DNA from: a virus | Lineage: Duplodnaviria > Heunggongvirae > Uroviricota > Caudoviricetes | DNA length: 64,000 bases | Strand: one strand, 5' to 3' | Virus record (IMG/VR): IMGVR_UViG_2687453522_000001 | Shown: in pieces, positions 1,159-32,175 of the stretch | Numbering within the stretch: position 1 is the stretch's first letter | Layout of the letters: every line of letters begins with the position of its first letter | The notes under the pieces: model-generated | Database searches by the model: none | What the model saw: only the letters and a program-made list of their open reading frames with translations | What the model was told of the DNA's origin: nothing | Position numbers and translations under genes: made by a program

Positions 1159-1308
1159 TAAATATATTATTTTTAATAATAAATGATTGACAACTGACAA
1201 GTGACTTCAGTCAGAATCATCACATGCCCGGTACGGATGGATCCCTTTTCAAATATTCCATGGACGGCACAGTCTGAGTACCGGGCGCTACCTTCAGTTG
1301 TATTGCTA

Positions 1309-1337
1309 AGCCGCCGCTGGTGGCTTTTCTTTTTTGT
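1309..1337 (+). terminator. putative intrinsic terminator downstream of ref
   Basis: GCCGCC-gct-GGTGGC stem (one G-U pair) followed by TTTTCTTTTTT; contains a Chi octamer GCTGGTGG at 1315-1322. Confidence 0.3.
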
Positions 1338-1346
1338 AGGGGCGCT

Positions 1347-1988
1347 ATGGATAAGAAAATATGCGTTGTTTCGATGAGCGTCGGCAAACCGGCATCAATG
1401 ACTGCTGCATGGATCAATAACGAGCTGATAATGGCTGAGCGGACCAGCTACCCTGAACGCCGCCGCGATATGGAACTCCAGCTGCTGCGCGAATTGCGAG
1501 AAAAAGAGGAAAAGGGTTTTATCGTGCTGGTGGAAGAGGAAAACAGCTTTATTACTGGTCGAGTTGGCCAGCGTGTAAGGTTGCGCGATCCCTTCATGAA
1601 CGGCAGGCCGGTACTAATTGAGGCAATGCAGATTTATAAGGAGCTGGAACGCCAGAAAGCAATCAAGTTACCGCGCAAGGAATCCGGCAAATACATCCTC
1701 CACCAAAGCATCTTCGATTCCGAACACGATAAAAAAGGCGATGAATTTTTCAACATCAACTGGAGCGAAATAACGACAGAGCACGTTCTGACGTTGTTAT
1801 GCTGCTTCGCAACGGAATATAACAACGTTGCAAGCGCCGACTACATTAGGGCAATGGCAGGAGAAGTTGATGCCCGCCAGGAATCATCGTTACTAAGCCC
1901 TCTGATTAACATAATTCGCGGAACCCAAACACTGGCACAAAAACGGGTGCCTAAAGGGGAGTTAACTGGAAAAGGAAATTATCTATAA
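1347..1988 (+). CDS. hypothetical protein at the P1 mat position
   Basis: ORF (track 1320..1988) with an AGGGG Shine-Dalgarno before ATG 1347; backbone-like GC by eye; no diagnostic motifs. Confidence 0.45.
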   Translation: MDKKICVVSMSVGKPASMTAAWINNELIMAERTSYPERRRDMELQLLRELREKEEKGFIVLVEEENSFITGRVGQRVRLRDPFMNGRPVLIEAMQIYKELERQKAIKLPRKESGKYILHQSIFDSEHDKKGDEFFNINWSEITTEHVLTLLCCFATEYNNVASADYIRAMAGEVDARQESSLLSPLINIIRGTQTLAQKRVPKGELTGKGNYL

Positions 1989-2044
1989 ACGTCAATGCAT
2001 TAGGGTATACTTCTCCATAGAACTATAAGTAAATGGAGTAAGTA

Positions 2045-3352
2045 ATGAGCGAATATGTTGAGTTAGCATACGCTGCCGCTACAAGCAGGCTTTGTCTATT
2101 TACCGGGACTGGCTTTTCAAAGGCAGTCTCGAACGGTGAAGCTCCAACGTGGAAGGAACTATTAAAAAAAGTTTGCAGCAAAGTTCACAATGCCAAAAAG
2201 TTGGAAGACACGTTATTCCCTGATGATAAACCACCAGCACTGAGTCTTGAAGAAGCCGCACAAATACTATCTTTGAAGCTCAATATTGAGGGTAAGTCGA
2301 TTTATGATGAAATTGTTGACATCATATCTCCAATTCAACTTGGAGAAGACATATCAAATATAAAAGATTTTTTCCAAAAAAACTCATTCCGTGTCATTAC
2401 AACAAATTATGACAAGTTGGCTGAATGCTTGGTTGGAGATGAAAGTGTGCAGTCTATCACGCCCGGCCTGCCAATTCCAAAGTATCCATCCAAGGTGAAA
2501 ATATATCATGTTCATGGTTCTATTGATTCGCCAAAAAATATGATTGTCACTTCAGATGATTACTTCAGATTTATAAATTCCGATACTTATTTTTCACGAA
2601 AACTTAGTACGATGCTGCATGAAAATACAGTTGCGATATTAGGGTATTCTTTAAGCGACACAAATCTTAAAGCAATTATAAATGACTATAAAAAATTTTC
2701 GAAAAATAATGCCCTGTGCTCTAATATCTTTTTGATATCTCGCAACAAAGTAAGTCAAGATATGAAGGATTATTACTTCTATTGCTTTGGTATAAGGGTA
2801 ATTGACAATACAGAAATAGATTGTTTCTTTAGTCGATTAAGTTATAAGATTTCTCTCATTAAAGACATCATTGAAAGAGCGCGCGAAAATATCAGAAAAG
2901 TTGTTTCGGGGGCTTACACTTATAAAAATGAATATCTTAAATTAGAGGATTCATTTTATCAAATTATATCATCAATTATATCGGAAGGTTTAGATTGGAA
3001 TGATGATAAAGTCGTTTCTCTTTTCGAAAGGATAATAGAAAAAAAGAGAAAGTTAACAAGGAATAACGGAGCGTGGGAGCAATATGAACAGTTGGCAAAA
3101 TGGCTTATATATTTTGGAAGCATCATAGAGGTTAGCAATACTAAGTATGAAAAAACATATTTAGACGCAGTTGAATACTCGATGGGTCATATGAGTAAAG
3201 AAAGGAATTGGGGAGTTTCTTGGCATGCTTACAGAGCTTGGGAAACACGATGGCCTGCAATAATTGCCTCAAATAGATTAATGATAAAAAACCACATTGA
3301 AACATTAGGCACCTTGAAGGACGCCAACCTTATAGTTAAGAATATAGTGTAA
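2045..3352 (+). CDS. SIR2-like (sirtuin-fold, putative NAD+-hydrolysing) domain protein, 435 aa; candidate single-gene anti-phage defense
   Basis: N-terminal LFTGTGFSKA (Rossmann glycine loop), RVITTNYDKL (N121) and KIYHVHGSID (H157), spaced as in defense-associated SIR2 domains; alpha-helical C-terminal ~170 aa of unknown function; markedly AT-rich versus neighbours; GGAG Shine-Dalgarno. Confidence 0.8.
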   Translation: MSEYVELAYAAATSRLCLFTGTGFSKAVSNGEAPTWKELLKKVCSKVHNAKKLEDTLFPDDKPPALSLEEAAQILSLKLNIEGKSIYDEIVDIISPIQLGEDISNIKDFFQKNSFRVITTNYDKLAECLVGDESVQSITPGLPIPKYPSKVKIYHVHGSIDSPKNMIVTSDDYFRFINSDTYFSRKLSTMLHENTVAILGYSLSDTNLKAIINDYKKFSKNNALCSNIFLISRNKVSQDMKDYYFYCFGIRVIDNTEIDCFFSRLSYKISLIKDIIERARENIRKVVSGAYTYKNEYLKLEDSFYQIISSIISEGLDWNDDKVVSLFERIIEKKRKLTRNNGAWEQYEQLAKWLIYFGSIIEVSNTKYEKTYLDAVEYSMGHMSKERNWGVSWHAYRAWETRWPAIIASNRLMIKNHIETLGTLKDANLIVKNIV

Positions 3353-3372
3353 TTGTGGTCGATAAAAATTTA

Positions 3373-3396
3373 TCGGGCAGATAAAACTGCCCGATA
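3373..3396. terminator. bidirectional hairpin between the convergent SIR2-like gene and the lxc-like gene
   Basis: ATCGGGCAG-ataaaa-CTGCCCGAT perfect 9-bp inverted repeat with A/T-rich flanks. Confidence 0.45.
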
Positions 3397-3398
3397 AA

Positions 3399-3647
3399 TT
3401 AATCAGCATTCAGGAGCAATGCGTTATCTATGATGATCTGCTCCCATTCTTCGAATGCCCGGTCACGGACGCCCTGGGGAACGCTGTTAGTTTTGAAATC
3501 GACGACCGTACGCCATTTCCCGTCCGGACGGTACATGCGCAGAGCTTTACTTCCCCCTTCCCTGCGCACCTCAACGTTATGCTTATCAGCAAACTCTTGT
3601 AATGCTCGTAGCGTCCCATGCTTTACTGTGTAGTATCGCTTTTTCAA
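3399..3647 (-). CDS. lxc: Lxc (Bof)-like small protein, 82 aa
   Basis: Size and position (downstream of ulx and darB on the same strand) fit P1 lxc; named on synteny and size only. Confidence 0.4.
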   Translation of the reverse strand: MKKRYYTVKHGTLRALQEFADKHNVEVRREGGSKALRMYRPDGKWRTVVDFKTNSVPQGVRDRAFEEWEQIIIDNALLLNAD

Positions 3648-4084
3648 GTTTTCTCTCCAGCCTGTGCTAAGGCTTCAACTTCCAAATCGTAAGACTCAAA
3701 CTCATAGTCCTGGTCGTCAACCTCTTCAGGCACTGGCAGTAAATGCCAGGCTGAGTATATCTGACCATTATCAAAACGCTCCTGGCTGTAGAGCGTCGCA
3801 GCTATGAGCGTCAGCGCCGGGCGGTCATAACGGTAAATTTTGCGAACGTCACGGTCAACGAGACGACCGAAATTACCATAACCGCGCTCCAGTAATAATT
3901 TTTTAATTTCCGGCCAGTATGGACCATAGCTGCGGTACAGGCGGGGATTTTTCAGTAATCGCCCGCGTAGCCCTGACAGGAAGAAATCAACGTATTCGTC
4001 TTCTGTCTTTCCTAACAACGCTGTACGGAGTACCGCCTCAAGATATGTTTTATTCGGTTTTATTGTATCAGATAGTGTGGCCAT
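3644..4084 (-). CDS. ulx: Ulx-like protein, 146 aa
   Basis: Lies between darB and the lxc-like gene with a 4-nt overlap onto lxc; named on synteny only. Confidence 0.4.
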   Translation of the reverse strand: MATLSDTIKPNKTYLEAVLRTALLGKTEDEYVDFFLSGLRGRLLKNPRLYRSYGPYWPEIKKLLLERGYGNFGRLVDRDVRKIYRYDRPALTLIAATLYSQERFDNGQIYSAWHLLPVPEEVDDQDYEFESYDLEVEALAQAGEKT

Positions 4085-4117
4085 ATTATGCGACGCCCGG
4101 CGAACCGGGCGCTCCTG

Positions 4118-7100
4118 TTATGCGTATTGTTGGATGACGGCCAGAACGTCCGCCACGTTGTGTTTTGTCTCGATAATCCACCAGTTACCCGGGAAATCGC
4201 TGTTCTTCGCCTTCGCTGGCAGCCAGCGAGCGCCGAATTTCGCCTTGATTGCGTCTTTCGCACGGAAAAGAACGCCTTTCATGCCTGAGGCTTCCTGAAG
4301 CCCAAATACCTCGCCAGCGGCGAATTTTGGTGCGTACATCATCTTCAGGTCGGCGGTGGATACGCGATAATTCAGACCAAGAGACTGAGCTATGCTGGTG
4401 GCATCACCCTGTATTGATGATAACTCTTCTTGTTTCTCGTTTCTGGCGGCAATTTCTTCCTCCGTGATGTTGCCAAGGGCCAGGTTTATCCGATCAGCGT
4501 CGGCCTGTTTCTCTTCATCGGTGCGCCCGGCAAGAACCGTGTTAATTCTCTGCAATATCTCCACATGATTCTTACGCATGCTGAGCAATTCCGGCGTAAC
4601 TTCGTTAAGATCCACCAGCCCAAGGATGGCAAGGTCGGAAAACATTGATACCAGGTTGTAGGTCATGCGATAGCTGAGTTGGCCATAGGCTGATGGCAAC
4701 TGCACCGCATCCATTTGATAGGCATCCATAAATTTAGAGCCGTCGTTTACGACATCCGCAATTGCAGGTGTGATTTTCCCTGTGGTAGCGGCCTCCCTGA
4801 TTGCTGTTACCCACGATTGAGTCAGTGCGGCGACTGCATGAATCAGATTGGCTTCCCGTTCTGCTGCGATGCGCGCGCTTGCTGAGTCCATTGCCTGCTT
4901 GATCTCGGCTTTATTGCTGTAAATGCCAATGGTGCCAAACTGTGCTGTGGTGATCTCATAATCTGACGCCCGGAACTCATGGGTACCGAAAATGGCATTG
5001 GTGACCTCAAGTTCAGAATCCCCGTTACGAGTAGCCCCCTGGCTTGTTTTCTCCGGCATTTTTGCGATCGCATCCGCTATTTTCTCCTGAATTGCTTCAG
5101 GGGATAGCGTATCTCCGTATGACGCGATTACATCGCCATAATTGGAGCCAAACAATTCAACCAGGAATGTTTCTGCCGAACGGATCTGGCGGTTATTCCC
5201 TTCCGACATCATACCAAGCACCCATTTTGCAATTGACGACTTCAGCGCGCCGTCACGGCGATCCGGGTAAACCGCATGCTTCAGTGGGTCCGTATAGGTA
5301 CCAACAAAATCAATGCTATAGCCTGACTCTGTAGTCTGAACGCCGTATGAGTCAGTGATTTTGATCATGCCGCGCTGCTGGAAACGGTAGAAATCGTCAC
5401 AGGAAATGATGTCGTTAATCCCGGCGATGGAGACGCCACCACTGATTTTCTGCATAACAGCATCTTCATCGGGAGTTACATCCACCTGTTTATCCAGCGT
5501 CTTCACATCCCAGTTACCCGATTTGGTGCCTTTGAAGGTAAAGATGATCTCCACGTCTGCGCGCTGGCTGTCGAAGTCCAGCGACTTAATACGAACGATA
5601 TCACCGGCACAATCGTAGTATTGGCCTACACGCCATGAGCGATCGCCGATAACAAGGAACTCATTCGCATGGTTAACCAGATCAGGATCAACATCCAGAA
5701 TGCCTTTATTTATTGCATCCTCCACCAGTGGGCGCAGGCGTTTGATATCCGTCGCGGCCTTCTGAGTACGGTTCAATAATTTCTCATAGCGGGAGATGGC
5801 TTGAGAGATATTAGCCTTGCGCTGAATGGCGCTTTTCAACGACGCGCGATACTGTGCTAACAACGTACGGTCTGTGTGATGGACGCTACCCCAGCGGGCC
5901 TTCCAGTCTGCGTTATCAGCTGCTTTGGCCATTACCGCCTGTTTGAATTTAGCTACCTCGGCGGTGGTCTTTTCAAGTTCCGCTTTGCTTCGCTCTAATT
6001 CAGCGGTAAGTACCTCCACATCCTCGCCAGCTGCGTGCTGCGCCTTGATGTAGTTCTGAAGGTCGATAGTAGCCTGTTCTTTCTGGCGAGCGCGTTGCGC
6101 GGCTTTCGCCTTATCCATTTGAACCTGCATCATTGCCAGACGTTCGCCATCATCCTTAGCGGTATACATCTGCATTTCGATCATGTCATTGGCGTCGGCG
6201 TTCTCCATTTCTGACTTATCTGAACGGAGGATATCGGAGATCCAGCCTGCTTTACGCTTCAGCGTCTTCAGTCGGTATTCATCGAAAGACCCCTTGCCGC
6301 AGTAGTAGTGAACGCGAACGCTTGCACGGTTGGAGCCAACTCGTGCACCGCGACCGTTACGTTGTGCGATACTGGCTGGTGTCCACGGCAACGTCAGGTG
6401 GTGGATATCCGTCGTTCCTCGATGCAGGTTGATACCCACCTCTGCCTTTTTGTTGCAGATGATGATCGGAGTCCGGCCCTCCTGGAAGTCGGCAGCAATC
6501 TTTTCCAGCCCACCCAGCGACATTTCATTTTGCTGCGCGATATAGGCGTCATACAGAGCCATTTGCTCGTTGTATTTCGCTATCTGTGCATCTGTTGGTT
6601 CATCCGGTAGCTCTTTCGGCGGTTTAACCGCTTTCAGTTTCTTACCGGTTTTACCTGCCTCGGCAACCGTCTGAGCATTCAGGATCCCCACCTTTGAAGG
6701 TTCAAGGTTAAGAGCATTGCAGATAATGCGCTTGAGCTTCTGGTGTTGCGTTTTTTCATCGGTGAAGATGATTTGCTTACCTTCCGGGAAAAACTCCTTC
6801 AGCGTGGCAATCAGCTTCGCGTATTTGGGCGTAACGGGGTGAGTTACGGTCTGTTCGTCAATGCCAAACTTGGCCAGGCGCTTATTCACTTCCTGCTCAA
6901 ATGCTTCCGGTACCTGCAACTGAATAAACTCGCCCTTATCTATCAGGGAGTATTGCGATTGCTGCGTGATCGAATCATCACTGTCGTCGTCTTCGCTGGT
7001 GGCTTGTTTAGGCAAACTGTCCGCCAGCTGCTGCACCGCATCGGCGTACTCCGGCAGGAAACGATAGGTGATCCTGCGATAGTACAGGTCCATGTCAGTA

Positions 7101-10100
7101 CATACGCGGTCCATATCCCTGATTATTGAGAAGATCGGACGGGCTTTCTCGTGCTCAATCACGCCGTCTTCATTGACCGAGGTCGTTACGCCATTGTTGG
7201 CTTTGGCTGCCGCTTCCGCCTGCTGACGCAATTCTTCATACGCCGCCAGTTGTTCTTCCGTAAGTGGTGCATCCTGCTGGTGTTCGTCCAGTTCCGGGAT
7301 CTCCACGGTATCCTTAACGTCTTCCGCCGTTTTAAGCGTTGTCCAGCGATGGAATATGCCGCGCAGCGCATCAAGGTTTTCAAAGCCCACCAGCGCCATT
7401 TTTTCTTCAACTTCACCGCTGATTTTCTGTACCGTTTCCAGCCTGGTCTTGCCGAAGAATTTAACGAAGTCATCAGGACCGTAGATCCCCATCTTCTGCC
7501 AGTATTCCTTCGGCAGCACATGAGAAAGCATGTTGTATGCATCGATCGGGGTGTTAACGACTGGCGTTGCAGTCAGGAGAACCGGTCCGCGCCCACCATT
7601 CTTTTTCATCAGGTACGCGTTTTTAATTGCCATATCCCGCGCCGATTGCGCCACCGCGCTGGTGGGCAGATAGGCCAGTTGTGACGCTTCGCGACCATTT
7701 TTATAGCTATTGCGGTAGTTGTGACCTTCGTCAGCGATCACACTATCGAAGCCCATATCCTCAAAGTACGGATACTTCTCTGCTTTTTCGGTGCCGGTAT
7801 CTGAATACTCCGACAATACCCGGCGACGCGCGGCCTCTTTGCGGTGGGAGTCGGAGTCCATTGCGCTGGCTACGCGCCCGGCGGCAACGAAGTCATAAAG
7901 CATATCCTGTGCATGCTCATCTACGGTGTCATCACGTAGCGGAATGCGGGCGTATTGTTCTTTGGTAAACACGACTGCACGGTAATTTGAGTGCGGGATC
8001 GCGTTCATCCGCGCCGTGATAGTGGCTTCATCTGCCAGTTTTAGGGCATCGCGCATAACTGGAGTGCCATCAGTACCAAGAACAGGTTTACCGTTCTCAT
8101 CGAGCACCGGCACCTGGCGAATCTGATCGCCATCCATCAGCACATCAAGACCGACGAACAGGTAGTTACTGAATGCCTCTTCACTCAGGAATTCTTTTGC
8201 TTCGTAATACCAGTTTTCCAGCACTGATTTAGGCACTACATACGCAGTACGGGTGGAGCGACCGTTCTCATAGTTGAACGCCTCAAGCGCCAGCGCGGTC
8301 GTAGTTTTACCCAGCCCGGTGCCGAAGCCCAGGATGCCGCGCCCATCTTCGGACAGTCGGCGCACTTCGCTATTCTGGTAATCAAATGGCTGGCGCTTAC
8401 CGCTTAATCCCTTCAACCCAAGCGGATCGCCAGAGTGTTCATACGGGATATTGCTATTGAACACATCGTTGTATTTGGCAACCAGTTCATCGTAGCGATC
8501 GTGCGTCTTGATCCACTTATTGAACTGGTCCTCAAGCAGTGCCATCTGCTCGCGGTAGCCGTTCGCCGTCGCGCTATCTTTGCCACCGATACGCGCACCA
8601 TTGAGATACTTTTCCAGCTGTGCCGGGAACCCGGTCGCGTTTTCACCTGATTTACGGTCCCACTCGTAGCGGATCTCGCCTGTTTCTTTATCCTTGCGCT
8701 GGACGACACCGTATCGGTGCCCGACGAACAGGCCATCACCACCGTGATAGGTGTCAGAAACCATTTCGTCGCCTTCCAGCTGCACTGACTGCACATAGCG
8801 CAGATCCGGATAGCCGTTTTCCTGCAAAAACTCCAGAATGACGGAACGGTCGAACCAACGGCTATTGAGCTTAAACCGGATATTCTCTGCTGGCGTCTTG
8901 ATGCGCTTCTCTTCGATCGCTGCCAGCTGATTAAGGACGTTGTTCTTTACTGGACCGTCGGGGAGCGTGGCGAGGAATTCCTGTTTTGGAGCCACTATCT
9001 CGTTAATGTCGCCGCTGGTGGCGCGGGCGAACGGAACAATCCCGCCATACGGAGAAACCGCAATACCAGGAGTGCTGGCCAATAAATTAAGCAACTCTTC
9101 ATCACTGGCTGGCAATTCGCCGGTAAACGCAAGGCGGAAATCATCGAGCTGGATTGGATCGCGGGTAAGATCGCTATAGAGATAACGCAGGGTGTCCTGA
9201 TAGCTGGTGGAGTCATAACTGGCGCTGGAATCATGCGTAACCAGCTTTCCTGTCAGCTCGTCAGAAATAGTGCCATCCAGCTTAATTGCACCACGGAAAG
9301 CAAACCAGGCGCGCGCACCGCTTCCCGATAATTTAGCTATCGGACCGCGACCAGGGTTACCAAAACGGTCAATCTCTGCCTGCAAACGGGATACCAGAGA
9401 AAGGCGCTGCTGTTCGATTTGTTCAGCACTATGCCCGGCGGCCTTCATATCCTGATATTCAATTAACATCCGGCCAATCATCGCCCCACGATACAAGCGT
9501 TCACGGTATTTTTCAGGCTGGCTGTTAATCCAGTCCACCAGCTGCACCATATCGTCGCTGATTGATGTGGTGTACTTATCGCGGACATTTGCCATCTGGG
9601 TAAATGTCATACCGAGACGGCCTTCTGTTGTAGTCAGGTTACGCTGAAGAGCCTCCCAGCTATCCGCGCCATAACTGGCAGCATCAATTTTAAGTTCCTT
9701 CCCGGCATCAGCTTCAATCCAGCGACCACCAGCATATTTTTGCCATACGCCATTAATCAGGCGCATTTCCCCTTCACCAACAACGTCTGCGGTCAGTGAC
9801 GGTTCAGCCATATCGAGCAAAGACCAGTCGATACGGCTTTCGAAACGATGAATCAGCTTCGCTTTAAGAGCCTGGTTATCAATCTGACCGTCGGCACGAA
9901 CCTCAATACGCCCCTGGAAGCCCTTTTCCTGGGTGCCATGAACAAACCGGCGGCCATCCTTTTCAAACCACTTGCCAGAAATAAACGTTGGCCAAAGCAC
10001 ATTTGCCGATTCAAGAGTGCTTTCATCCACCAGGGGGATTTTCTCAGCCATCTCTGCCGGATGTTTGCGCATCAGCACCACATCAACGACTGTACTGGTC

Positions 10101-10885
10101 CCGTTTGCGTCAAAAGTACCGGTAGGCAAGCGGTGGGCACCAAGAAATTCAGCTTTCCGTGATAGGCGCAGGCGTAACCGCTTCATGTTTGAACCTGAAA
10201 CAATGGACGGCGGCACAATCACGCACATGAATCCGCCTGGCTTTATCTTGTCCAGCATGCGGAGCATGAAGTAAGAACCCATGTCCGTTTCTTCTGCGTA
10301 AGGCTTATCGATGTTGCGTGTGTTATCACGACCGCCGAACGGAACGTTACCCACAACATGGTCGAATGAATCGTTAGGCGTGCTTATAGCCAGCTGTTCG
10401 AACGGGGAAATCTGTACGCTGTCTTCCGGGTGTAACAACTGGTTTATACGACCGGAAACACTGCTGATCTCAGTCGCGGTCATCACCGTACCAACCGGTT
10501 TTGTCTCATTAAAAACGCCGGTTCCCGCCGATGGTTCCAGAGTGTTACCTACGTCCGCGCCGTAGAGCTTCATGATCTCCCAGACACCTTCAGCGATCGG
10601 CTTTGGTGTGTAATATTCGGAGACGGACCCGCCAATGCCGCCTTCACCGGTGTACCCAGCCAGGATCTGGCGCTGTTCATCTGTCAGTGTCGCGCCGTCC
10701 ACCAGCGAATTAAGCAAATCAATCGCCTTCTGATTCGCCTCCCGGCGTAGTCGGTCATAGCTTTTGCCTTCCACCTTTTCCACGCCGTATCTAATCGGCG
10801 CTCGGTGAGATGTTATTGCCCTAATGTATTTCAATATTTCGCTGACACTTGAACAGCGAAACACCCCCATAGATAGCTTGTTCAT
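4118..10885 (-). CDS. darB: DarB, giant virion anti-restriction protein (N6-adenine MTase-like domain plus DExH helicase), 2255 aa
   Basis: Length identical to P1 DarB; MTase-like motif GNVPFGG near the N-terminus; helicase Walker A GFGTGLGKTT and DExH box IADEGHNYRN. Confidence 0.9.
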   Translation of the reverse strand: MNKLSMGVFRCSSVSEILKYIRAITSHRAPIRYGVEKVEGKSYDRLRREANQKAIDLLNSLVDGATLTDEQRQILAGYTGEGGIGGSVSEYYTPKPIAEGVWEIMKLYGADVGNTLEPSAGTGVFNETKPVGTVMTATEISSVSGRINQLLHPEDSVQISPFEQLAISTPNDSFDHVVGNVPFGGRDNTRNIDKPYAEETDMGSYFMLRMLDKIKPGGFMCVIVPPSIVSGSNMKRLRLRLSRKAEFLGAHRLPTGTFDANGTSTVVDVVLMRKHPAEMAEKIPLVDESTLESANVLWPTFISGKWFEKDGRRFVHGTQEKGFQGRIEVRADGQIDNQALKAKLIHRFESRIDWSLLDMAEPSLTADVVGEGEMRLINGVWQKYAGGRWIEADAGKELKIDAASYGADSWEALQRNLTTTEGRLGMTFTQMANVRDKYTTSISDDMVQLVDWINSQPEKYRERLYRGAMIGRMLIEYQDMKAAGHSAEQIEQQRLSLVSRLQAEIDRFGNPGRGPIAKLSGSGARAWFAFRGAIKLDGTISDELTGKLVTHDSSASYDSTSYQDTLRYLYSDLTRDPIQLDDFRLAFTGELPASDEELLNLLASTPGIAVSPYGGIVPFARATSGDINEIVAPKQEFLATLPDGPVKNNVLNQLAAIEEKRIKTPAENIRFKLNSRWFDRSVILEFLQENGYPDLRYVQSVQLEGDEMVSDTYHGGDGLFVGHRYGVVQRKDKETGEIRYEWDRKSGENATGFPAQLEKYLNGARIGGKDSATANGYREQMALLEDQFNKWIKTHDRYDELVAKYNDVFNSNIPYEHSGDPLGLKGLSGKRQPFDYQNSEVRRLSEDGRGILGFGTGLGKTTTALALEAFNYENGRSTRTAYVVPKSVLENWYYEAKEFLSEEAFSNYLFVGLDVLMDGDQIRQVPVLDENGKPVLGTDGTPVMRDALKLADEATITARMNAIPHSNYRAVVFTKEQYARIPLRDDTVDEHAQDMLYDFVAAGRVASAMDSDSHRKEAARRRVLSEYSDTGTEKAEKYPYFEDMGFDSVIADEGHNYRNSYKNGREASQLAYLPTSAVAQSARDMAIKNAYLMKKNGGRGPVLLTATPVVNTPIDAYNMLSHVLPKEYWQKMGIYGPDDFVKFFGKTRLETVQKISGEVEEKMALVGFENLDALRGIFHRWTTLKTAEDVKDTVEIPELDEHQQDAPLTEEQLAAYEELRQQAEAAAKANNGVTTSVNEDGVIEHEKARPIFSIIRDMDRVCTDMDLYYRRITYRFLPEYADAVQQLADSLPKQATSEDDDSDDSITQQSQYSLIDKGEFIQLQVPEAFEQEVNKRLAKFGIDEQTVTHPVTPKYAKLIATLKEFFPEGKQIIFTDEKTQHQKLKRIICNALNLEPSKVGILNAQTVAEAGKTGKKLKAVKPPKELPDEPTDAQIAKYNEQMALYDAYIAQQNEMSLGGLEKIAADFQEGRTPIIICNKKAEVGINLHRGTTDIHHLTLPWTPASIAQRNGRGARVGSNRASVRVHYYCGKGSFDEYRLKTLKRKAGWISDILRSDKSEMENADANDMIEMQMYTAKDDGERLAMMQVQMDKAKAAQRARQKEQATIDLQNYIKAQHAAGEDVEVLTAELERSKAELEKTTAEVAKFKQAVMAKAADNADWKARWGSVHHTDRTLLAQYRASLKSAIQRKANISQAISRYEKLLNRTQKAATDIKRLRPLVEDAINKGILDVDPDLVNHANEFLVIGDRSWRVGQYYDCAGDIVRIKSLDFDSQRADVEIIFTFKGTKSGNWDVKTLDKQVDVTPDEDAVMQKISGGVSIAGINDIISCDDFYRFQQRGMIKITDSYGVQTTESGYSIDFVGTYTDPLKHAVYPDRRDGALKSSIAKWVLGMMSEGNNRQIRSAETFLVELFGSNYGDVIASYGDTLSPEAIQEKIADAIAKMPEKTSQGATRNGDSELEVTNAIFGTHEFRASDYEITTAQFGTIGIYSNKAEIKQAMDSASARIAAEREANLIHAVAALTQSWVTAIREAATTGKITPAIADVVNDGSKFMDAYQMDAVQLPSAYGQLSYRMTYNLVSMFSDLAILGLVDLNEVTPELLSMRKNHVEILQRINTVLAGRTDEEKQADADRINLALGNITEEEIAARNEKQEELSSIQGDATSIAQSLGLNYRVSTADLKMMYAPKFAAGEVFGLQEASGMKGVLFRAKDAIKAKFGARWLPAKAKNSDFPGNWWIIETKHNVADVLAVIQQYA

Positions 10886-10951
10886 TGGTAATCCTTAACA
10901 AGTGACTAGTGTTAAATTCCGTTCAAACACGATGCGAATTATTCTAATTAA

Positions 10952-13682
<2,731 letters not shown>

Positions 13683-26037: not shown

Positions 26038-26283
26038 ATGCTAATAGGCTATGTACGCATATAGACAAATGAACAAAACACAGCTATGCAGTGAAAAGCA
26101 CTTGAAAGCGCAGGATGTGAGCTAATTTTTGCGAATAAGGCGAGCAGCAAAAAGGCTGGGCACCCTGGGTTAAAAAAGGTTCTGCGTATGCTTTCCAGAG
26201 GTGATACCCTAGTCTCGGGCTAGGGACAACATTTCGAGGACAGTTTTCATTAGCGGTCAGCAGGCGCTAGATACATCGAATTG
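26038..26283 (+). pseudogene. decayed serine DNA-invertase gene fragment (Cin/Pin/Gin/Hin-like N-terminus)
   Basis: Translation MLIGYVRI*TNEQNTAMQ*KALESAGCELIF...KAGHPGLKKVLRMLSRGDTLVSG* is co-linear with the Cin N-terminus but has three in-frame stops, one replacing the catalytic-Ser codon; downstream homology fades. Confidence 0.6.
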
Positions 26284-26345: not shown

Positions 26346-26918
26346 TTACAGCTCAGATTGAGTTTGGCGCTTCTCTACAGGATGATAACGATAAATCGTC
26401 GATACACCGATATCGTAAATAATTGCCAACTGTTTCCTGCTGTAGCCATTTTCGATCAACCTCGCTATTTGCTCATGTTGTTCTTTTGTCAACTTCGGGC
26501 GACGTCCGCCAATGCGTCCCTGTTCGCGTGCAGCTGCCAGTCCGGCCAGTGTTCTCTCAACAATTAATTCACGTTCCATTTCTGCTAAAGCCCCCATGAC
26601 GTGAAAAAAGAAACGCCCCATGGGTGTTGATGTGTCAATACTGTCTGTCAGACTACGGAAATTAACACCTTTTTCCCGCAACTCCTCTATAAGCGTGATA
26701 AGGTGTTTCATACTTCTGCCAAGCCTATCCAGCTTCCAGACAACCAGCGTATCTCCTTCTGATAACGTTCTGAGCAGCTTTTTCAAGCCTGGTCTGGCTG
26801 ACTTTGTTCCGCTTATTTTATCTTCAAAAATCAGTTCACATCCTGCGCACTCCAGCGCGTTACGCTGCAATTCTGTATTCTGGTCATTTGTTGATACGCG
26901 GACATAGCCAATAAGCAT
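26346..26918 (-). CDS. cin: Cin serine DNA invertase, 190 aa
   Basis: MLIGYVRVSTNDQNTELQ catalytic motif, resolvase core and C-terminal HTH; adjacent to an invertible tail-fibre segment. Confidence 0.9.
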   Translation of the reverse strand: MLIGYVRVSTNDQNTELQRNALECAGCELIFEDKISGTKSARPGLKKLLRTLSEGDTLVVWKLDRLGRSMKHLITLIEELREKGVNFRSLTDSIDTSTPMGRFFFHVMGALAEMERELIVERTLAGLAAAREQGRIGGRRPKLTKEQHEQIARLIENGYSRKQLAIIYDIGVSTIYRYHPVEKRQTQSEL

Positions 26919-26945
26919 GATGGATCCTCTGAATAAAAACCGGGG

Positions 26946-27437
26946 ATGATGCCAGTTAGCCGTAATCTCTGCATTTTCTTAAACGTTGGTTTAGGGGAAG
27001 GCTCGGCGCTGCCCGTTGGTGTGCCTGTTCCGTGGCCCTCAGCCACACCACCAACGGGGTGGCTGAAATGTAACGGTGCAGCGTTTTCTGCCGTTGAATA
27101 TCCTAAACTGGCGAAGGCTTATCCGACAAATAAATTGCCGGATTTACGCGGTGAGTTTATTCGTGGCTGGGATGATGGACGCGGCATTGATACAGGACGT
27201 GCTTTATTGAATATTCAGAGTGATGATATTAAAAAGTTCGAACTTAAGTATTTTGGGCCAGGTGGTGGGCCTGGAACCGCAACAGTATTTGCATTGCAAA
27301 ATGGTGTGAGTGGTATTTATACAACAGGAATTAATCAGGAAGGCGGATCTACAACCGCTAATGCTTTTCAAATTCCTGGTGGGCGTGAAACCCGTCCGAG
27401 AAATATTGCATTTAACTATATTGTGAGAGCTGCATAA
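26946..27437 (+). CDS. Sv', silent alternative tail-fibre C-terminal segment
   Basis: Tail-collar-like receptor-binding motifs (PVGVPVPWP, GWLKCNGAAFS, YPKLA); carries cix at its 5' end, so inversion would fuse it in frame to Sc. Confidence 0.6.
   Translation: MMPVSRNLCIFLNVGLGEGSALPVGVPVPWPSATPPTGWLKCNGAAFSAVEYPKLAKAYPTNKLPDLRGEFIRGWDDGRGIDTGRALLNIQSDDIKKFELKYFGPGGGPGTATVFALQNGVSGIYTTGINQEGGSTTANAFQIPGGRETRPRNIAFNYIVRAA
26974..26999. other. cix recombination site (left)
   Basis: TTTTCTTAAACGTTGGTTTAGGGGAA: 26-bp imperfect palindrome of Gin/Cin/Hin crossover-site type; encodes FLNVGLGE in Sv'. Confidence 0.6.
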
Positions 27438-28039
27438 TGAATAGCGCGATATTGAATAATGAACTTATTGCCGTACAGGCAGGAAACATCATCGTTTACA
27501 ACTATGACAGTGAGACAAAGGAATATATTTCCGCATCAACTGAATATCTTGCGGTAGGTGTTGGTATTCCGGCATATTCTTGTTTAGATGCCCCCGGCAT
27601 ACATAAGGCTGGTTATGCAATCTGCCGTTCTTTGGATTTAAATTCATGGGAATATGTGCCAGACCATCGCGGTGAAATCGTCTATAACACCGAAACGGGG
27701 GACGCCAAAGAAATCACTGCACCGGGCGACTATCCTGAAAATACAACCACTATTGCCCCATTAACGCCATACGATGAATGGGATGGTGAGAAATGGGTGA
27801 CAGATACTGAGGCACAGCATAGCGCCGCAGTAGGCGCGGCAGAAACACAGCGACAGTCACTGATTGATACTGCAATGGCTTCCATCAGTCTGATTCAACT
27901 GAAATTGCAGGCCGGACGTAAACTGACGCAGGCAGAAACAACTAGACTTAACGCTGTGCTGGATTACATTGACGCGGTGACGGCAACAGATACCAGCACC
28001 GCGCCGGATATCAATTGGCCTGCTCCCCCGGAGGCGTAG
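27437..28039 (+). CDS. U', alternative tail-fibre assembly protein
   Basis: Follows Sv' on the same strand inside the invertible segment; convergent with U. Confidence 0.55.
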   Translation: MNSAILNNELIAVQAGNIIVYNYDSETKEYISASTEYLAVGVGIPAYSCLDAPGIHKAGYAICRSLDLNSWEYVPDHRGEIVYNTETGDAKEITAPGDYPENTTTIAPLTPYDEWDGEKWVTDTEAQHSAAVGAAETQRQSLIDTAMASISLIQLKLQAGRKLTQAETTRLNAVLDYIDAVTATDTSTAPDINWPAPPEA

Positions 28040-28457
28040 GCCAGACGGGATTTGATGTATCAACGCGCATCAGCAAGACCCGGTATTTTTTCCATTCAGA
28101 TAACGCGGCGGTTTCTTCTGCCGTCGCGATTTCCGCATCAAAAGCATCCTGTCTCCAGACTATTTCCTTATCAGCCATAGAACGCAATACCGTTCTTTTC
28201 TGTTCAGCCTGAATAATCTGTTGTTCAGCGGAGAGTGGCGGGATATCAATCCACGCAGGATTACCATTTTTATCAGCCCCCAGCGTTTTGCCTTCTGGCG
28301 CTACGCCTGTGTAAATTGCCATTGTTTCATCATCAACATCAGCGCCATTTTCAGGCCATGAACCGGCGCTGATATATACATCTTTTAGTGCTTCCGGATA
28401 GAAAGAGCCTTTATAAAATTTATTCATTCTTAATACCCCAACGCGATAAAACAACAA
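28011..28457 (-). CDS. U, tail-fibre assembly protein (expressed orientation)
   Basis: Immediately downstream of S on the same strand, overlapping its stop. Confidence 0.55.
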   Translation of the reverse strand: MLFYRVGVLRMNKFYKGSFYPEALKDVYISAGSWPENGADVDDETMAIYTGVAPEGKTLGADKNGNPAWIDIPPLSAEQQIIQAEQKRTVLRSMADKEIVWRQDAFDAEIATAEETAALSEWKKYRVLLMRVDTSNPVWPTPPGEQAN

Positions 28458-31400
28458 TCTTCGGTGCCCTCTCCGGATGGCGACCAGTTCTGAATACTGA
28501 TATGCGTTCTGCTGGCAATACGCACATTCATCGCGGCATTGTAGCCAGGTGTTCCACGGTTTCCGGTCGCAAACAAACCTGCATAGGGAAAAGCAAATGG
28601 TAAGGCATATCCAGCATCAACTCCCTTTTGTGTTGCCACCATTCCCCACTGCAACATAAGTTTCACCGGGTTTCCTGTCGTCGCAATGCATGGAATGTAG
28701 ATGTAGCCATTACCTGACATCATTGACCTGAAGCTGTCTAAATCCAGTAACTTCGAGGCATTATCTGCTCCAACATCTCGTGTTGCAGCGGTCCCTAACT
28801 GGAGCGCATTTCGGAAGGCTGATACATCAGAAATATCATATCCATTAGCCGATTTCTGCATAGCTCCGGAGGCTTTATCTATCGTTTCTCCCAAACCAAG
28901 GTAATTAAGAACGCTCTGAATACTGGGCTTACTAAGAATTGCACGTCCAACACTTGTCAGTGCAGTTAACGCGGCACGATCAACCCCTGTGAAATAAGGG
29001 AGTTTATCTGCTGCGGTAGCTAGTGCCGCTAGAGCAGTGAGCGTAGCGTCTGCCGCTTGCTTTCCATTAGCCAAATCATATGCAGCCTTGACAGCTTTCG
29101 GTGTAGCGGCCAGCACTTCAGACGTGCTGTTAGTGGCACTACTGAGCTGAGTGATGCCTTTCGCTGTCAATGAAGCTGTTGGCACACCAGTGATCTGATT
29201 CCAGGGATGTGTATGACTGGATGGTGCCTTTCCGGCTGCTAGATCGTATGCAGCTTTAACCGCTTTTGGAGTTGCAGCTAATGTTTCAGAAGTGCTGTTG
29301 GTGTCGCTACTGAGCTGAACTATCCCTTTTTGTGTCGTGGTTGCATCCTGGGCCGTATACTTCCCGTTAGCCAGGTCATATGCTGCCTTGACTGCTTTCG
29401 GTGTGGCGGCCAGCACTTCGGACGTGCTGTTAGTGGCACTACTGAGCTGAGTGATGCCTTTCGCTGTCAATGAAGCTGTTGGCACACCAGTGATCTGATT
29501 CCAGGGATGTGTATGACTGGATGGTGCCTTTCCGGCTGCTAGATCGTATGCAGCTTTAACCGCTTTTGGCGTTGCAGCTAATGTTTCAGAAGTGCTGTTG
29601 GTGTCGCTACTGAGCTGAACTATCCCTTTTTGTGTCGTGGTTGCATCCTGGGCTGTATACTTCCCGTTAGCCAGGTCATATGCAGCCTTGACAGCTTTCG
29701 GTGTGGCGGCCAGCACTTCAGACGTACTGTTAGTGGCACTACTGAGCTGAGTGATGCCTTTCGCTGTCAATGAAGCTGTTGGCACACCAGTGATCTGATT
29801 CCAGGGATGTGTATGACTGGATGGTGCCTTTCCGGCTGCTAGATCGTATGCAGCTTTAACCGCTTTTGGAGTTGCAGCTAATGTTTCAGAAGTGCTGTTG
29901 GTGTCGCTACTGAGCTGAACTATCCCTTTTTGTGTCGTGGTTGCATCCTGGGCCGTATACTTCCCGTTAGCCAGGTCATATGCTGCCTTGACTGCTTTCG
30001 GTGTGGCGGCCAGCACTTCGGACGTGCTGTTAGTGGCACTACTGAGCTGAGTGATGCCTTTCGCTGTCAATGAAGCTGTTGGCACACCAGTAATCTGATT
30101 CCAGGGATGTGTATGACTGGATGGTGCCTTTCCGGCTGCTAGATCGTATGCAGCTTTAACCGCTTTTGGAGTTGCAGCTAATGTTTCAGAAGTGCTGTTG
30201 GTGTCGCTACTGAGCTGAGTGATGCCTTTCGCTGTCAATGAAGCTGTTGGCACACCAGTAATCTGATTCCAGGGATGTGTATGACTAGATGGTGCCTTTC
30301 CGGCTGCTAGATCGTATGCAGCTTTAACCGCTTTTGGAGTTGCAGCTAATGTTTCAGAAGTGCTGTTGGTGTCGCTACTGAGCTGAACTATCCCTTTTTG
30401 TGTCGTGGTTGCATCCTGGGCCGTATACTTCCCGTTAGCCAGGTCATATGCTGCCTTGACTGCTTTCGGTGTGGCGGCCAGCACTTCGGACGTGCTGTTA
30501 GTGGCACTACTGAGCTGAGTGATGCCTTTCGCTGTCAATGAAGCTGTTGGCACACCAGTAATCTGATTCCAGGGATGTGTATGACTGGATGGTGCCTTTC
30601 CGGCTGCTAGATCGTATGCAGCTTTAACCGCTTTTGGAGTTGCAGCTAATGTTTCAGAAGTGCTGTTGGTGTCGCTACTGAGCTGAGTGATGCCTTTCGC
30701 TGTCAATGAAGCTGTTGGCACACCAGTGATCTGATTCCAGGGATGTGTATGACTGGATGGTGCCTTTCCGGCTGCTAGATCGTATGCAGCTTTAACCGCT
30801 TTTGGCGTTGCAGCTAATGTTTCAGAAGTGCTGTTGGTGTCGCTACTGAGCTGAACTATCCCTTTTTGTGTCGTGGTTGCATCCTGGGCCGTATACTTCC
30901 CGTTAGCCAGGTCATATGCAGCCTTGACAGCTTTCGGTGTGGCGGCCAGCACTTCAGACGTGCTGTTAGTAGCACTACTGAGCTGAACTAATCCCTTTTG
31001 CGTTGTGCTTGCATCCTGCGCCGTATACTTGCTTTTCGCCAGATCGTAGGCTTTTTTAACTGCCAGCGAACTTGCAGCGACATCACTTCTGGTACTGGTT
31101 ACAGAGTCGGAAATTTCAATGCCTATCGTGAGATCGATGCGGTCGGATACATCTATCATTTCCTGAGTAATAGCAGATACGCCAGCAGGGATATTCACCG
31201 TACAAACAAGCAGTTCCCCATCTCCTAACTGATATGAATCGGTATAGGTTCTGGCAACAAATTCAGCCGCATGAATATGTGACGCGGTATTAACCTGATA
31301 AGAATCTTCTCCAAGGAGGTATCTTCCCTTCAGCACAATTGCATATTTCTTACCTGCGCTAAGTGCAAGAGAAATATCCTTACGCTGCTGAATAGTTACC

Positions 31401-31651
31401 TGGTAGAATTCACCAATATTCACTGACGCCGCGCCAGCGGTTTTATCACCATCCACTGAGGTGATTAACAGTTTCATCCCACCGCCAGGCTTAGGCAAGA
31501 AACCAGCATAAAATCCCGGGTCAACAATTCCCCTGAATTTTCGGTTTAGAGCGGCTGACAGATATGGTTCGTGGTATTGCACATCAGCCACCAGAGCCAA
31601 CGACTCGGGTGATGGGTAAGTAACCGATGTAACAACTGTAACGTCATTCAT
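28430..31651 (-). CDS. S tail-fibre protein (constant Sc plus variable Sv in current orientation)
   Basis: Track ORF 28430..31738; probable start MNDVTVV at 31651, just overlapping R. Contains at least 13 phage tail-fibre repeats (TxKGxxQLSSxTNSTSExLAATPKAVKAAYDLA); cix sits at the Sc/Sv junction. Confidence 0.8.
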   Translation of the reverse strand: MNDVTVVTSVTYPSPESLALVADVQYHEPYLSAALNRKFRGIVDPGFYAGFLPKPGGGMKLLITSVDGDKTAGAASVNIGEFYQVTIQQRKDISLALSAGKKYAIVLKGRYLLGEDSYQVNTASHIHAAEFVARTYTDSYQLGDGELLVCTVNIPAGVSAITQEMIDVSDRIDLTIGIEISDSVTSTRSDVAASSLAVKKAYDLAKSKYTAQDASTTQKGLVQLSSATNSTSEVLAATPKAVKAAYDLANGKYTAQDATTTQKGIVQLSSDTNSTSETLAATPKAVKAAYDLAAGKAPSSHTHPWNQITGVPTASLTAKGITQLSSDTNSTSETLAATPKAVKAAYDLAAGKAPSSHTHPWNQITGVPTASLTAKGITQLSSATNSTSEVLAATPKAVKAAYDLANGKYTAQDATTTQKGIVQLSSDTNSTSETLAATPKAVKAAYDLAAGKAPSSHTHPWNQITGVPTASLTAKGITQLSSDTNSTSETLAATPKAVKAAYDLAAGKAPSSHTHPWNQITGVPTASLTAKGITQLSSATNSTSEVLAATPKAVKAAYDLANGKYTAQDATTTQKGIVQLSSDTNSTSETLAATPKAVKAAYDLAAGKAPSSHTHPWNQITGVPTASLTAKGITQLSSATNSTSEVLAATPKAVKAAYDLANGKYTAQDATTTQKGIVQLSSDTNSTSETLAATPKAVKAAYDLAAGKAPSSHTHPWNQITGVPTASLTAKGITQLSSATNSTSEVLAATPKAVKAAYDLANGKYTAQDATTTQKGIVQLSSDTNSTSETLAATPKAVKAAYDLAAGKAPSSHTHPWNQITGVPTASLTAKGITQLSSATNSTSEVLAATPKAVKAAYDLANGKQAADATLTALAALATAADKLPYFTGVDRAALTALTSVGRAILSKPSIQSVLNYLGLGETIDKASGAMQKSANGYDISDVSAFRNALQLGTAATRDVGADNASKLLDLDSFRSMMSGNGYIYIPCIATTGNPVKLMLQWGMVATQKGVDAGYALPFAFPYAGLFATGNRGTPGYNAAMNVRIASRTHISIQNWSPSGEGTEDCCFIALGY
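28886..28911. other. cix recombination site (right), inside S
   Basis: TTCTCCCAAACCAAGGTAATTAAGAA, inverted relative to the left site (about 20/26 identical to its reverse complement); encodes LNYLGLGE. Confidence 0.6.
29040..31080 (-). repeat. in-frame tandem DNA repeat array within S (about 300-bp units, near-identical copies)
   Basis: Blocks such as tttcgctgtcaatgaagctgttggcacaccagtgatctgattccagggatgtgtatgactggatgg recur many times with only point differences. Confidence 0.85.
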
Positions 31652-32097: not shown

Positions 32098-32175
32098 GAT
32101 TTTCCCTAATCAATGTTGTGAAGCCTCATTGTAAGATAAGTAACTTGTCACCCCGCCCTGCGGACGGGGTGATTG

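Follow-up and report, generated by a model that had tools for sequence, protein, structure and literature searches.

An evidently active DNA-inversion switch with two alternative tail-fibre tips in a P1-like phage-plasmid of Escherichia coli

The 64,000-nucleotide stretch of DNA analysed here (the window) carries a phage tail-fibre gene, S, whose last part lies in a short segment bordered by two inverted crossover sites and a DNA invertase gene. Sc, the constant N-terminal part of S, occupies 28912..31651 (−) and continues across one of the crossover sites into the variable tip Sv. Over the first 252 aa it shares 92% identity with P1 S, and an expanded array of Phage_fiber_2 repeats follows. 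The complete S protein has 1,073 aa and the alternative product S' 1,067 aa, with an identical prefix of 922 aa in both. The P1 late promoter LPs (−10 and −22 boxes; 32128..32146, −) lies upstream of R, outside the segment, in a region with 98.3% identity to P1 over 578 bp, and both annotated boxes are identical.

The centres of the crossover sites are 1,912 bp apart. Open reading frames and Pfam domains between them bear out the gene content first described for this segment, with Sv'-U' on the plus strand and U-Sv on the minus strand. Sv (28430..28911, −), the currently expressed C-terminal tip of S, has a Gp53-like_C domain (PF21882) and is 91-99% identical in three E. coli phages; it is followed by U (28011..28427, −; 138 aa; Caudo_TAP, E 2e-31), the assembly chaperone for Sv, whose C-terminus is about 41-43% identical to those of P1 and Mu U. 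Sv' (26976..27437, +), the silent alternative tip, has a Phage Tail Collar domain (PF07484, E 2.8e-15), is 57% identical to e14 StfE and is joined in frame to Sc in two sequences (L001 and L002). Its chaperone U' (27437..28039, +; 200 aa; Caudo_TAP, E 3e-32) is 84% identical to e14 TfaE, and the 3' ends of U and U' overlap by 29 nt. Sv and U were also considered as direct homologues of e14 StfP and TfaP, but this was rejected, the similarity being marginal (26% and 40%, over short stretches). Comparison with P1 revealed no homology of the cassettes except for the U C-terminus. The estimate that the segment is about half the size of the P1 C segment was correct, since 1,912 bp compare with 4,256 bp annotated for P1; long inverted repeats like those of P1 are absent from the segment (none above 25 nt). 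In a sigma-70 scan, the only hit was one weak site at 27187, inside Sv', which is fewer than expected by chance and carries little information. As the scan found no promoter-like site upstream of Sv'-U', it is plausible that this cassette is promoterless; nor did the scan identify a promoter for the invertase gene.

Both 26-bp crossover sites lie exactly where the initial annotation had placed them, in inverted orientation. The invertase-proximal site (26974-26999) reads TTTTCTTAAACG-TT-GGTTTAGGGGAA, in full TTTTCTTAAACGTTGGTTTAGGGGAA, and the Sc-proximal site (28886-28911) reads TTCTCCCAAACC-AA-GGTAATTAAGAA, in full TTCTCCCAAACCAAGGTAATTAAGAA; read in inverted orientation, the central dinucleotide is TT at both. 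When the whole 64 kb was scanned with the palindromic Din-type consensus TTNTCNNAAACCNNGGTTTNNGANAA, allowing up to 3 mismatches, these two sites were the sole matches (0.04 expected), and none of 100 shuffled controls gave two or more. Allowing 4 mismatches added no further site in the window of the kind that a Min-like shufflon has. Alignment with known crossover sites, a check proposed at the outset, succeeded for both, which align with cix, pix and gix: the invertase-proximal site matches e14 pixR at 23 of 26 positions, and the Sc-proximal site has the same inner half as e14 pix. The outer half-site on the Sc side (TTCTTAATTACC) fits the consensus poorly; a similar imperfection is seen on this side of P1 cixR. 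Both sites are translated as 2 nt plus 8 codons, giving F-L-N-V-G-L-G-E in Sv' (+) and L-N-Y-L-G-L-G-E in S (−), and because of these readings the claim that both encode L-N-x-x-G-L-G-E holds.

The invertase gene (26346..26918, −) encodes a 190-aa protein of the Min/Pin type, with Pfam Resolvase (E 9e-52) and HTH_7 domains and a match to the Gin structure 4M6F at E 1.6e-92. It is 98.4% identical to the invertase of pJIE250-3, 81% to e14 PinE, 75.8% to P1 Cin and 72% to Gin, the last three being characterised enzymes. The pJIE250-3 enzyme is in turn reported to be 98.5% Min of p15B (PMC6906374), and it is through this enzyme, rather than through the p15B sequence directly, that the likeness to Min was established. 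Thus, of the Cin-mediated inversion proposed initially, the inversion stands and the identity of the enzyme does not. The enzyme is active-looking as judged from its sequence: the reading frame is intact with all the catalytic residues, and Ser9, D64/R65/R68, H106 and M114 are present, the last two as in the wild type. It also has Q149, R152 and L153 together with K46, K47 and R50, Fis/enhancer contacts of a type unique to invertases (PMC3798978). Its gene is on the opposite strand from P1 cin, with the 5' end facing the segment, 55 bp off the crossover site, and is transcribed away from the segment. The 55-bp spacer (26919..26973) contains an ATGATG (26946); a terminator-like hairpin at 26957-26938 (−), between segment and invertase, has a weak stem and is not conserved in e14. 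Nucleotides 19-90 of the invertase gene (26829..26900, −) are equivalent to the enhancer annotated in P1, with 57 of 72 positions identical to P1, 61 of 72 to e14 pinE and 58 of 72 to Mu gin (79-85%), and this stretch is presumed to act as a Fis-dependent recombinational enhancer.

Beyond the invertase gene lies the remnant of another one. The first 59 codons of a P1-type cin pseudogene are found at 26038..26214 (+), preceded by the P1 cin promoter region and interrupted by two in-frame stops, one of them in place of the codon for the catalytic Ser9. The sequence is colinear with P1 (about 96%) up to 26214, and on this comparison the remnant marks the left edge of a replaced region. Sister plasmids, pJIE250-3 among them, carry the remnant with 99-100% identity.

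The segment occurs in nature in both orientations. Over 3 kb the window is 100% identical to p1493-4, an IncY P1-like phage-plasmid of E. coli, and in two other plasmids, pCREC-532_2 and pM71903, the segment is flipped. The sites of the flipped plasmids, TTCTTAATTACC-TT-GGTTTAGGGGAA and TTTTCTTAAACG-TT-GGTTTGGGAGAA, are reciprocal hybrids of the half-sites, as predicted for a crossover in the central TT, and the polymorphic positions place the exchange within the 7 bp TTGGTTT. Over 20 kb to either side of the segment, identity to the window is 99.98-99.99%, and the flip is essentially the sole difference between pCREC-629_2 and pCREC-532_2. Within the segment the divergence is 0.4% versus 0.015% in the flanks; we considered whether this indicates a different cassette and rejected the idea, since all 8 differences are clustered and private to the plasmid of the window. 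At 99.8% identity or above, and with same-study pairs included, 13 RefSeq records have the junction of the window and 5 the flipped one; PLSDB contains 12 in window orientation versus 2-3 flipped, and overall there are about 16 records of the former and 5-8 of the latter. A locus locked in a single orientation, which the initial annotation regarded as the finding that would speak against a switch, is therefore not what the databases contain: near-identical plasmids have it both ways. The flipped form encodes a 1,067-aa in-frame Sc-Sv' protein with U' directly after it, so the predicted in-frame fusion carrying a collar-type tip is encoded in existing plasmids. Taking these database records as the basis, inversion takes place at these two 26-bp sites.

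Could the opposite orientations come from misassembly, or from RecA-dependent recombination between short repeats? Assemblers can be confused by inverted repeats, and one of the records, NZ_CP029117.1, a noisy and untrimmed linear assembly, has both orientations within its redundant ends. However, the repeats in question are only 26 bp long and imperfect, and where the exchange takes place they agree in just 7 contiguous bases; this is too short both for RecA-dependent homologous recombination and for a long-read assembler to be misled. The exact reciprocal exchange of half-sites is, in addition, found in independent finished assemblies from several laboratories, and we regard this explanation as having practically no chance of being right. 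A different objection is that the segment has ceased to invert at any meaningful rate and that the orientations in the databases are rare historical events, each fixed in its lineage. This would agree with Venturini et al., in whose judgement reversal or alteration of the invertase in P1-like plasmids "likely impairs" the switch (PMC6906374). Against it, opposite orientations are found in plasmids that are 2-4 SNPs apart over 40 kb, several same-study pairs are split between orientations, both are present within the one assembly mentioned above, and the invertase has kept an intact reading frame with every catalytic residue. A fossil locus is highly improbable in the face of these observations, and the DNA-inversion switch between two alternative tail-fibre tips is real and evidently active.

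We consider it very probable that the locus works as a two-state switch of phage host range, operated by a serine invertase of the Fis/enhancer type. In the mechanism that we propose, the R, S, U operon would be transcribed from LPs outside the segment, with codons 1-922 of S (Sc) constant and the last 150 or so codons, together with the downstream chaperone gene, inside the 1,912-bp segment. The Min/Pin-type invertase would bind and synapse both sites, presumably on the enhancer within its own gene, some 90-100 bp from the nearer crossover site, and would then cleave at the central TT and rotate the strands. The orientation of the window would give Sc-Sv, with a Gp53-like tip, and chaperone U; the inverted orientation would give Sc-Sv', with a collar-type tip, and chaperone U'. 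Inversion presumably depends on the enhancer and on Fis, and the two tips would be expected to bind different receptors. The enzyme that acts in vivo is probably the plasmid's own. Pin-type enzymes of the host chromosome could also contribute to the activity or provide it. The alternative is that inversion is mainly the work, in trans, of chromosomally encoded Din invertases of the host (PinE, PinQ, PinR and others): each of these three inverts the e14 P segment, a documented cross-reactivity (PMC12529663), the sites of the window are very close to pix, and DNA similar to the invertase-cassette junction is present in 1,828 of 5,426 complete E. coli genomes. Nevertheless, an intact invertase of the plasmid itself adjoins the site in the same arrangement as Mu gin and e14 pinE, and it bears no sign of inactivity, which makes a mainly chromosomal source very unlikely; such a source would change the actor and leave the mechanism of the switch as proposed.

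The locus belongs, as an ordinary member, to the family of Hin/Gin/Cin/Pin/Min systems, which has long been known, and the mechanism is a known one. It shares these features with the Din systems: a serine recombinase of about 190 aa with a C-terminal HTH, two inverted 26-bp sites, inversion at these sites, and in-frame fibre C-termini that are swapped with their chaperones behind an external promoter. Its closest counterpart in layout is the P segment of e14, the cryptic prophage of E. coli K-12, reportedly described with PinE by Plasterk and van de Putte in 1985. Both have the order Sc-[Sv, Tfa | Tfa', Sv']-invertase, and in both the invertase gene is directed away from the segment; both have short crossover sites only, with a central TT; and their sizes are close (1,827 bp between pix centres in e14 by our computation, 1,797 bp as published, versus 1,912 bp). 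In both, one tip is of the collar type and the other Gp53-like, the two tfa genes overlap by 29 nt at their 3' ends, the chaperones have 137/138 and 200 aa, and an ATGATG start for the silent cassette, in e14 the start of stfE, occupies the same position in the spacer. The differences are that the invertase is only 81% identical to PinE and that the Sv/U half is barely related to StfP/TfaP, so that the layout is shared without orthology of all four cassette genes and the invertase. In e14, moreover, the fibre gene is truncated and belongs to a defective lambdoid prophage, whereas the window has a full-length 922-aa constant part of P1 type in an apparently intact phage-plasmid.

The P1 C segment has the same position in the backbone (flanks 96-98%), the same function, the same site position and S reading frame (…Y-L-G-L-x-E), a central TT and an external LPs. 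In spite of these similarities, it spans 4,256 bp with 0.6-kb inverted repeats that the window lacks, its cin gene is directed into the segment and has cixL at the 3' end, the identity to Cin is 75.8%, and Sv, Sv' and U' are unrelated at the DNA level. The orientation of the invertase, the size and repeats of the segment, the identity to Cin and the separate cin remnant rule out a strict P1 C segment/Cin system, and we also rejected the idea of a shortened C segment: the module is a different one, built like the e14 P segment. Mu resembles the window in having gin downstream of the G segment and directed outwards, an enhancer-bearing 5' end close to one site, short crossover sites and an S/U versus S'/U' logic, but its G segment is about 3 kb, its central dinucleotide is TC/GA, Gin is 72% identical and the cassettes are unrelated except for the U C-terminus. 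With the Min-type plasmids p15B and p266917_2_02 the window has in common a P1-like backbone, an essentially identical, reversed invertase and the pseudo-cin remnant (PMC6906374); the invertase of p266917_2_02 is 97.9% identical, Sc in these plasmids agrees with that of the window as far as the crossover site (98% nt), and their collar-type cassettes share the first 220 or so nt with that of the window. They have many cassettes and sites, however, six collar cassettes being annotated in one of them (L010), whereas the window, with two sites only and a separate chaperone for each of its two cassettes, has two states.

The cassette that is not fused to Sc may have a use of its own. The ATGATG just outside the segment is in frame with it, and the reading frame opens into whichever cassette is silent, giving 163 or 169 aa in the two orientations and ending in the unused receptor-binding tip. 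In e14, inversion generates an analogous chimera, StfE2, with a Gp53-like tip, and this protein reportedly prevents phage T2 from adsorbing (PMC12529663). By analogy, the spacer frame might produce a protein for receptor masking or superinfection exclusion in the lysogen; we think this improbable. If it were true, one switch would both set the host range of the progeny virions and toggle receptor masking or exclusion in the lysogen.

We found no description in the literature of this two-cassette variant in P1-like plasmids: papers on these plasmids list the cin-S region merely as variable, and a preprint on phage vB_EcoM-813R1 does not mention inversion. The locus opens no new question about mechanism, and its value is mainly practical. 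In a common IncY P1-like phage-plasmid lineage of clinical E. coli, a two-state host-range switch has stayed in working order, in contrast to the published view that reversal or alteration of the invertase probably disables switching in such plasmids. The two tips, neither of them that of P1, could affect which strains the plasmid prophages infect, and resistance genes have been reported in related P1-like phage-plasmids. Finally, the region documents modular exchange among P1-like, P2-like and e14-like prophages at invertase crossover sites.

The tail-fibre switch is real and of the textbook type, and the initial annotation had read it essentially correctly. Two 26-bp crossover sites, inverted relative to each other and with an identical central dinucleotide, lie where they had been placed, site 1 at 26974-26999 (TTTTCTTAAACG-TT-GGTTTAGGGGAA, written toward the centre) and site 2 at 28886-28911 (TTCTCCCAAACC-AA-GGTAATTAAGAA), their centres 1,912 bp apart. 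Scanned with a palindromic consensus for such sites, the 64-kb window yields just these two at up to 3 mismatches (0.04 expected by chance; two matches reached in 0 of 100 shuffles), and no third site was found even at up to 4 mismatches. Each site contributes two bases and eight codons to its gene, giving FLNVGLGE in Sv' and LNYLGLGE in S, which bears out the argument that the two share a frame across the genes.

Beside site 1, on the minus strand, is the invertase gene (26346-26918), encoding a 190-aa serine recombinase (Resolvase, HTH_7). The plus strand of the segment carries Sv' (26976-27437, Phage Tail Collar domain) and U' (27437-28039, a 200-aa Caudo_TAP chaperone), and the minus strand U (28011-28427, a 138-aa Caudo_TAP chaperone) and Sv (28430-28911, Gp53-like C-terminal domain), into which Sc (28912-31651, minus strand), the constant part of the 1,073-aa tail fibre, runs directly. 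U and U' are convergent, their 3' ends overlapping by 29 nt (28011-28039) and terminating in WPAPPEA on one strand and WPTPPGEQAN on the other.

Both orientations are present in database records of near-identical plasmids. In pCREC-532_2 (NZ_CP024832.1) and pM71903 (NZ_AP023436.1) the 1.9-kb segment is reversed relative to both flanks, and these match the window at 99.98-99.99% identity over 20 kb per side; pCREC-629_2, in the window orientation, differs from pCREC-532_2 by the flip and two mismatches per 20-kb flank. In both flipped plasmids the Sc-side site is TTCTTAATTACC-TT-GGTTTAGGGGAA and the invertase-side site TTTTCTTAAACG-TT-GGTTTGGGAGAA, each a hybrid with its outer half from one window site and its inner half from the second, and the bases that differ between the sites narrow the exchange to 7 bp, TTGGTTT, central TT included. 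Since homologous recombination or mis-assembly is implausible from a 26-bp imperfect repeat with seven identical bases at the exchange point, the inversion is site-specific; no long inverted repeats were found in the segment. The annotated tail-fibre gene of the flipped plasmids encodes 1,067 aa, of which the first 922 are those of the window's S, continuing in frame into Sv' with U' directly after, so that the predicted in-frame Sc-Sv' fusion is seen in these records.

At 99.8% identity or more, RefSeq holds 13 records with the window-type junction and 5 with the flipped one, with two more flipped copies at 98-99%; PLSDB has 12 in the window orientation versus 2-3 flipped, and the pooled records come to about 16 and 5-8, respectively. 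Sets from the same study are split by orientation (ECO11 versus ECO12 and ECO13; strain 158 versus strain 167). NZ_CP029117.1, a linear, untrimmed 120.8-kb assembly of a ~97-kb plasmid, carries the region twice, in opposite orientations, in its redundant ends (1276-11674 and 102745-105745 of the record, with a noisy copy containing many frameshifted gene calls), for which a mixed-orientation population in one culture is probably the simplest explanation.

The Cin label first given to the invertase was not borne out: (i) the enzyme shares 75.8% of its residues with P1 Cin, 72% with Mu Gin and 81% with e14 PinE, versus 98.4% and 97.9% with the invertases of pJIE250-3 and p266917_2_02, the former reported to match p15B Min at 98.5% and to be reversed with respect to P1 cin (Venturini et al., PMC6906374); (ii) the window gene is reversed too, its 5' end 55 bp from the site, as the 5' ends of Mu gin and e14 pinE are near theirs, whereas P1 cin is directed into the C segment and has cixL at its 3' end. 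The P1 C segment, at 4,256 bp, is about twice as long as the segment here. The e14 P segment has the same architecture (StfP-TfaP, then TfaE-StfE-pinE), equal chaperone lengths (137/138 and 200 aa) and an identical 29-nt convergent tfaP/tfaE overlap; its TfaE is 84% identical to U', its collar-type tip StfE 57% identical to Sv' (collar domain), and its pixR site equals site 1 at 23 of 26 positions, which aligns the latter with a published crossover site. A Gp53-like tip also occurs in e14 (PMC12529663). The window's Sv-U half differs from the e14 cassette, and just three E. coli phage records contain it, at 91-99% identity. From these comparisons the module reads as Min/Pin-type with e14 architecture, not as a small C segment. 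Six collar cassettes, the Min arrangement, are present in other P1-like plasmids that share this invertase and this Sc, and this region is known to vary in the P1-like family (PMC9603915); the window segment is therefore the minimal two-site version within that variable-region family.

The surroundings are those of P1. E. coli plasmid p1493-4 (NZ_CP019075.1, IncY, 96,986 bp) is 100% identical to the region over 3 kb, and some 20 further plasmids of 96-100 kb match it at 99-100%. Colinearity with P1 holds on both sides at 96-98% identity (the flanking genes include darA, hdf and lyd to one side and R, gene 16 and bplA to the other; both annotated boxes of the late promoter LPs are intact upstream of R at 32128-32146), ending at 26214 and restarting at 30905, so the non-P1 stretch begins inside cin, takes in the invertible segment and ends in the repeat portion of Sc. 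P1 homology stops exactly at the end of a P1-type cin pseudogene (26038-26214, plus strand), which spans 59 codons, is interrupted by two in-frame stops, the catalytic Ser9 codon being replaced by one of them, and lies behind the P1 cin promoter region. This remnant, 99-100% identical in sister plasmids including pJIE250-3, indicates that the lineage formerly had a P1-type cin and that the region was replaced afterwards. Within it the enhancer region is present a second time, in decayed form.

Several further differences were observed. Sc contains at 29060-30500 at least five tandem 300-nt units of 168-nt and 132-nt Phage_fiber_2 sub-repeats (14 Pfam repeat matches), P1 having far fewer; among sister plasmids its length varies by exactly one unit (3,300-bp versus 3,001-bp span), so the fibre shaft is polymorphic in length. 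In U', 8 differences within 84 bp (27776-27859) separate the window's plasmid from every sister examined, in both orientations, with about 6 in the surrounding 40 kb; the cluster resembles a short patch of gene conversion with another tfa gene as donor. The ddrB and ddrA homologues are separated by 1.3 kb inserted with respect to P1 (20600-21934); annotated in sister plasmids as a TnpB-family RNA-guided endonuclease (IS200/IS605-type), this insertion is probably the IS609-like element noted in PMC6906374. In the 99% identical phage vB_EcoM-813R1 (ON470617.2), the invertase is annotated in two pieces, 'Hin1' and 'Hin2' (30363-30931), which reflects a frameshift or else an error in sequencing.

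Sites, reading frames, intact enzyme, exchange point and external late promoter are directly supported, and each alternative in-frame product is paired with its cognate chaperone. A putative enhancer lies within the invertase gene (gene nt 19-90, window 26900-26829), matching the annotated P1 enhancer at 57 and the e14 sequence at 61 of 72 positions, ~90-100 bp from the nearer site, a spacing comparable to the ~100 bp between hixL and enhancer in Hin (PMC3798978). Because the enzyme has the residues at invertase-specific Fis/enhancer contacts (Q149, R152, L153; K46, K47, R50; PMC3798978) and wild-type H106 and M114, not the activating changes of the crystallised Gin variant, inversion would be expected to be regulated and Fis-dependent.

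No promoter-like site was found upstream of Sv', which would fit a silent cassette. An ATGATG at 26946, lying in the spacer and not in the segment, begins an ORF that in either orientation reads into the cassette on the invertase side (26946-27437, plus strand, 163 aa in the window; 4957-5466, 169 aa in L002, a plasmid record with the flipped segment), the products being annotated in RefSeq as 'phage tail protein' and 'gp53-like domain-containing protein'. The stfE gene of e14 starts at the same position, and StfE2, which arises by inversion in e14, is reported to prevent adsorption of T2 (PMC12529663). Given the poor Shine-Dalgarno context and purely predicted expression, it seems unlikely that this ORF puts the silent cassette to comparable use.

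Of 5,426 complete E. coli genomes, 1,828 contain DNA resembling the invertase-cassette junction (at least 80% covered in 639 of those); the system is widespread. The records were already in RefSeq under generic annotation; what is new is modest, namely proof from database records of flipping in this P1-like lineage, the recognition of a Min/Pin-type module with e14 architecture, and a cin remnant that records the replacement of the region.
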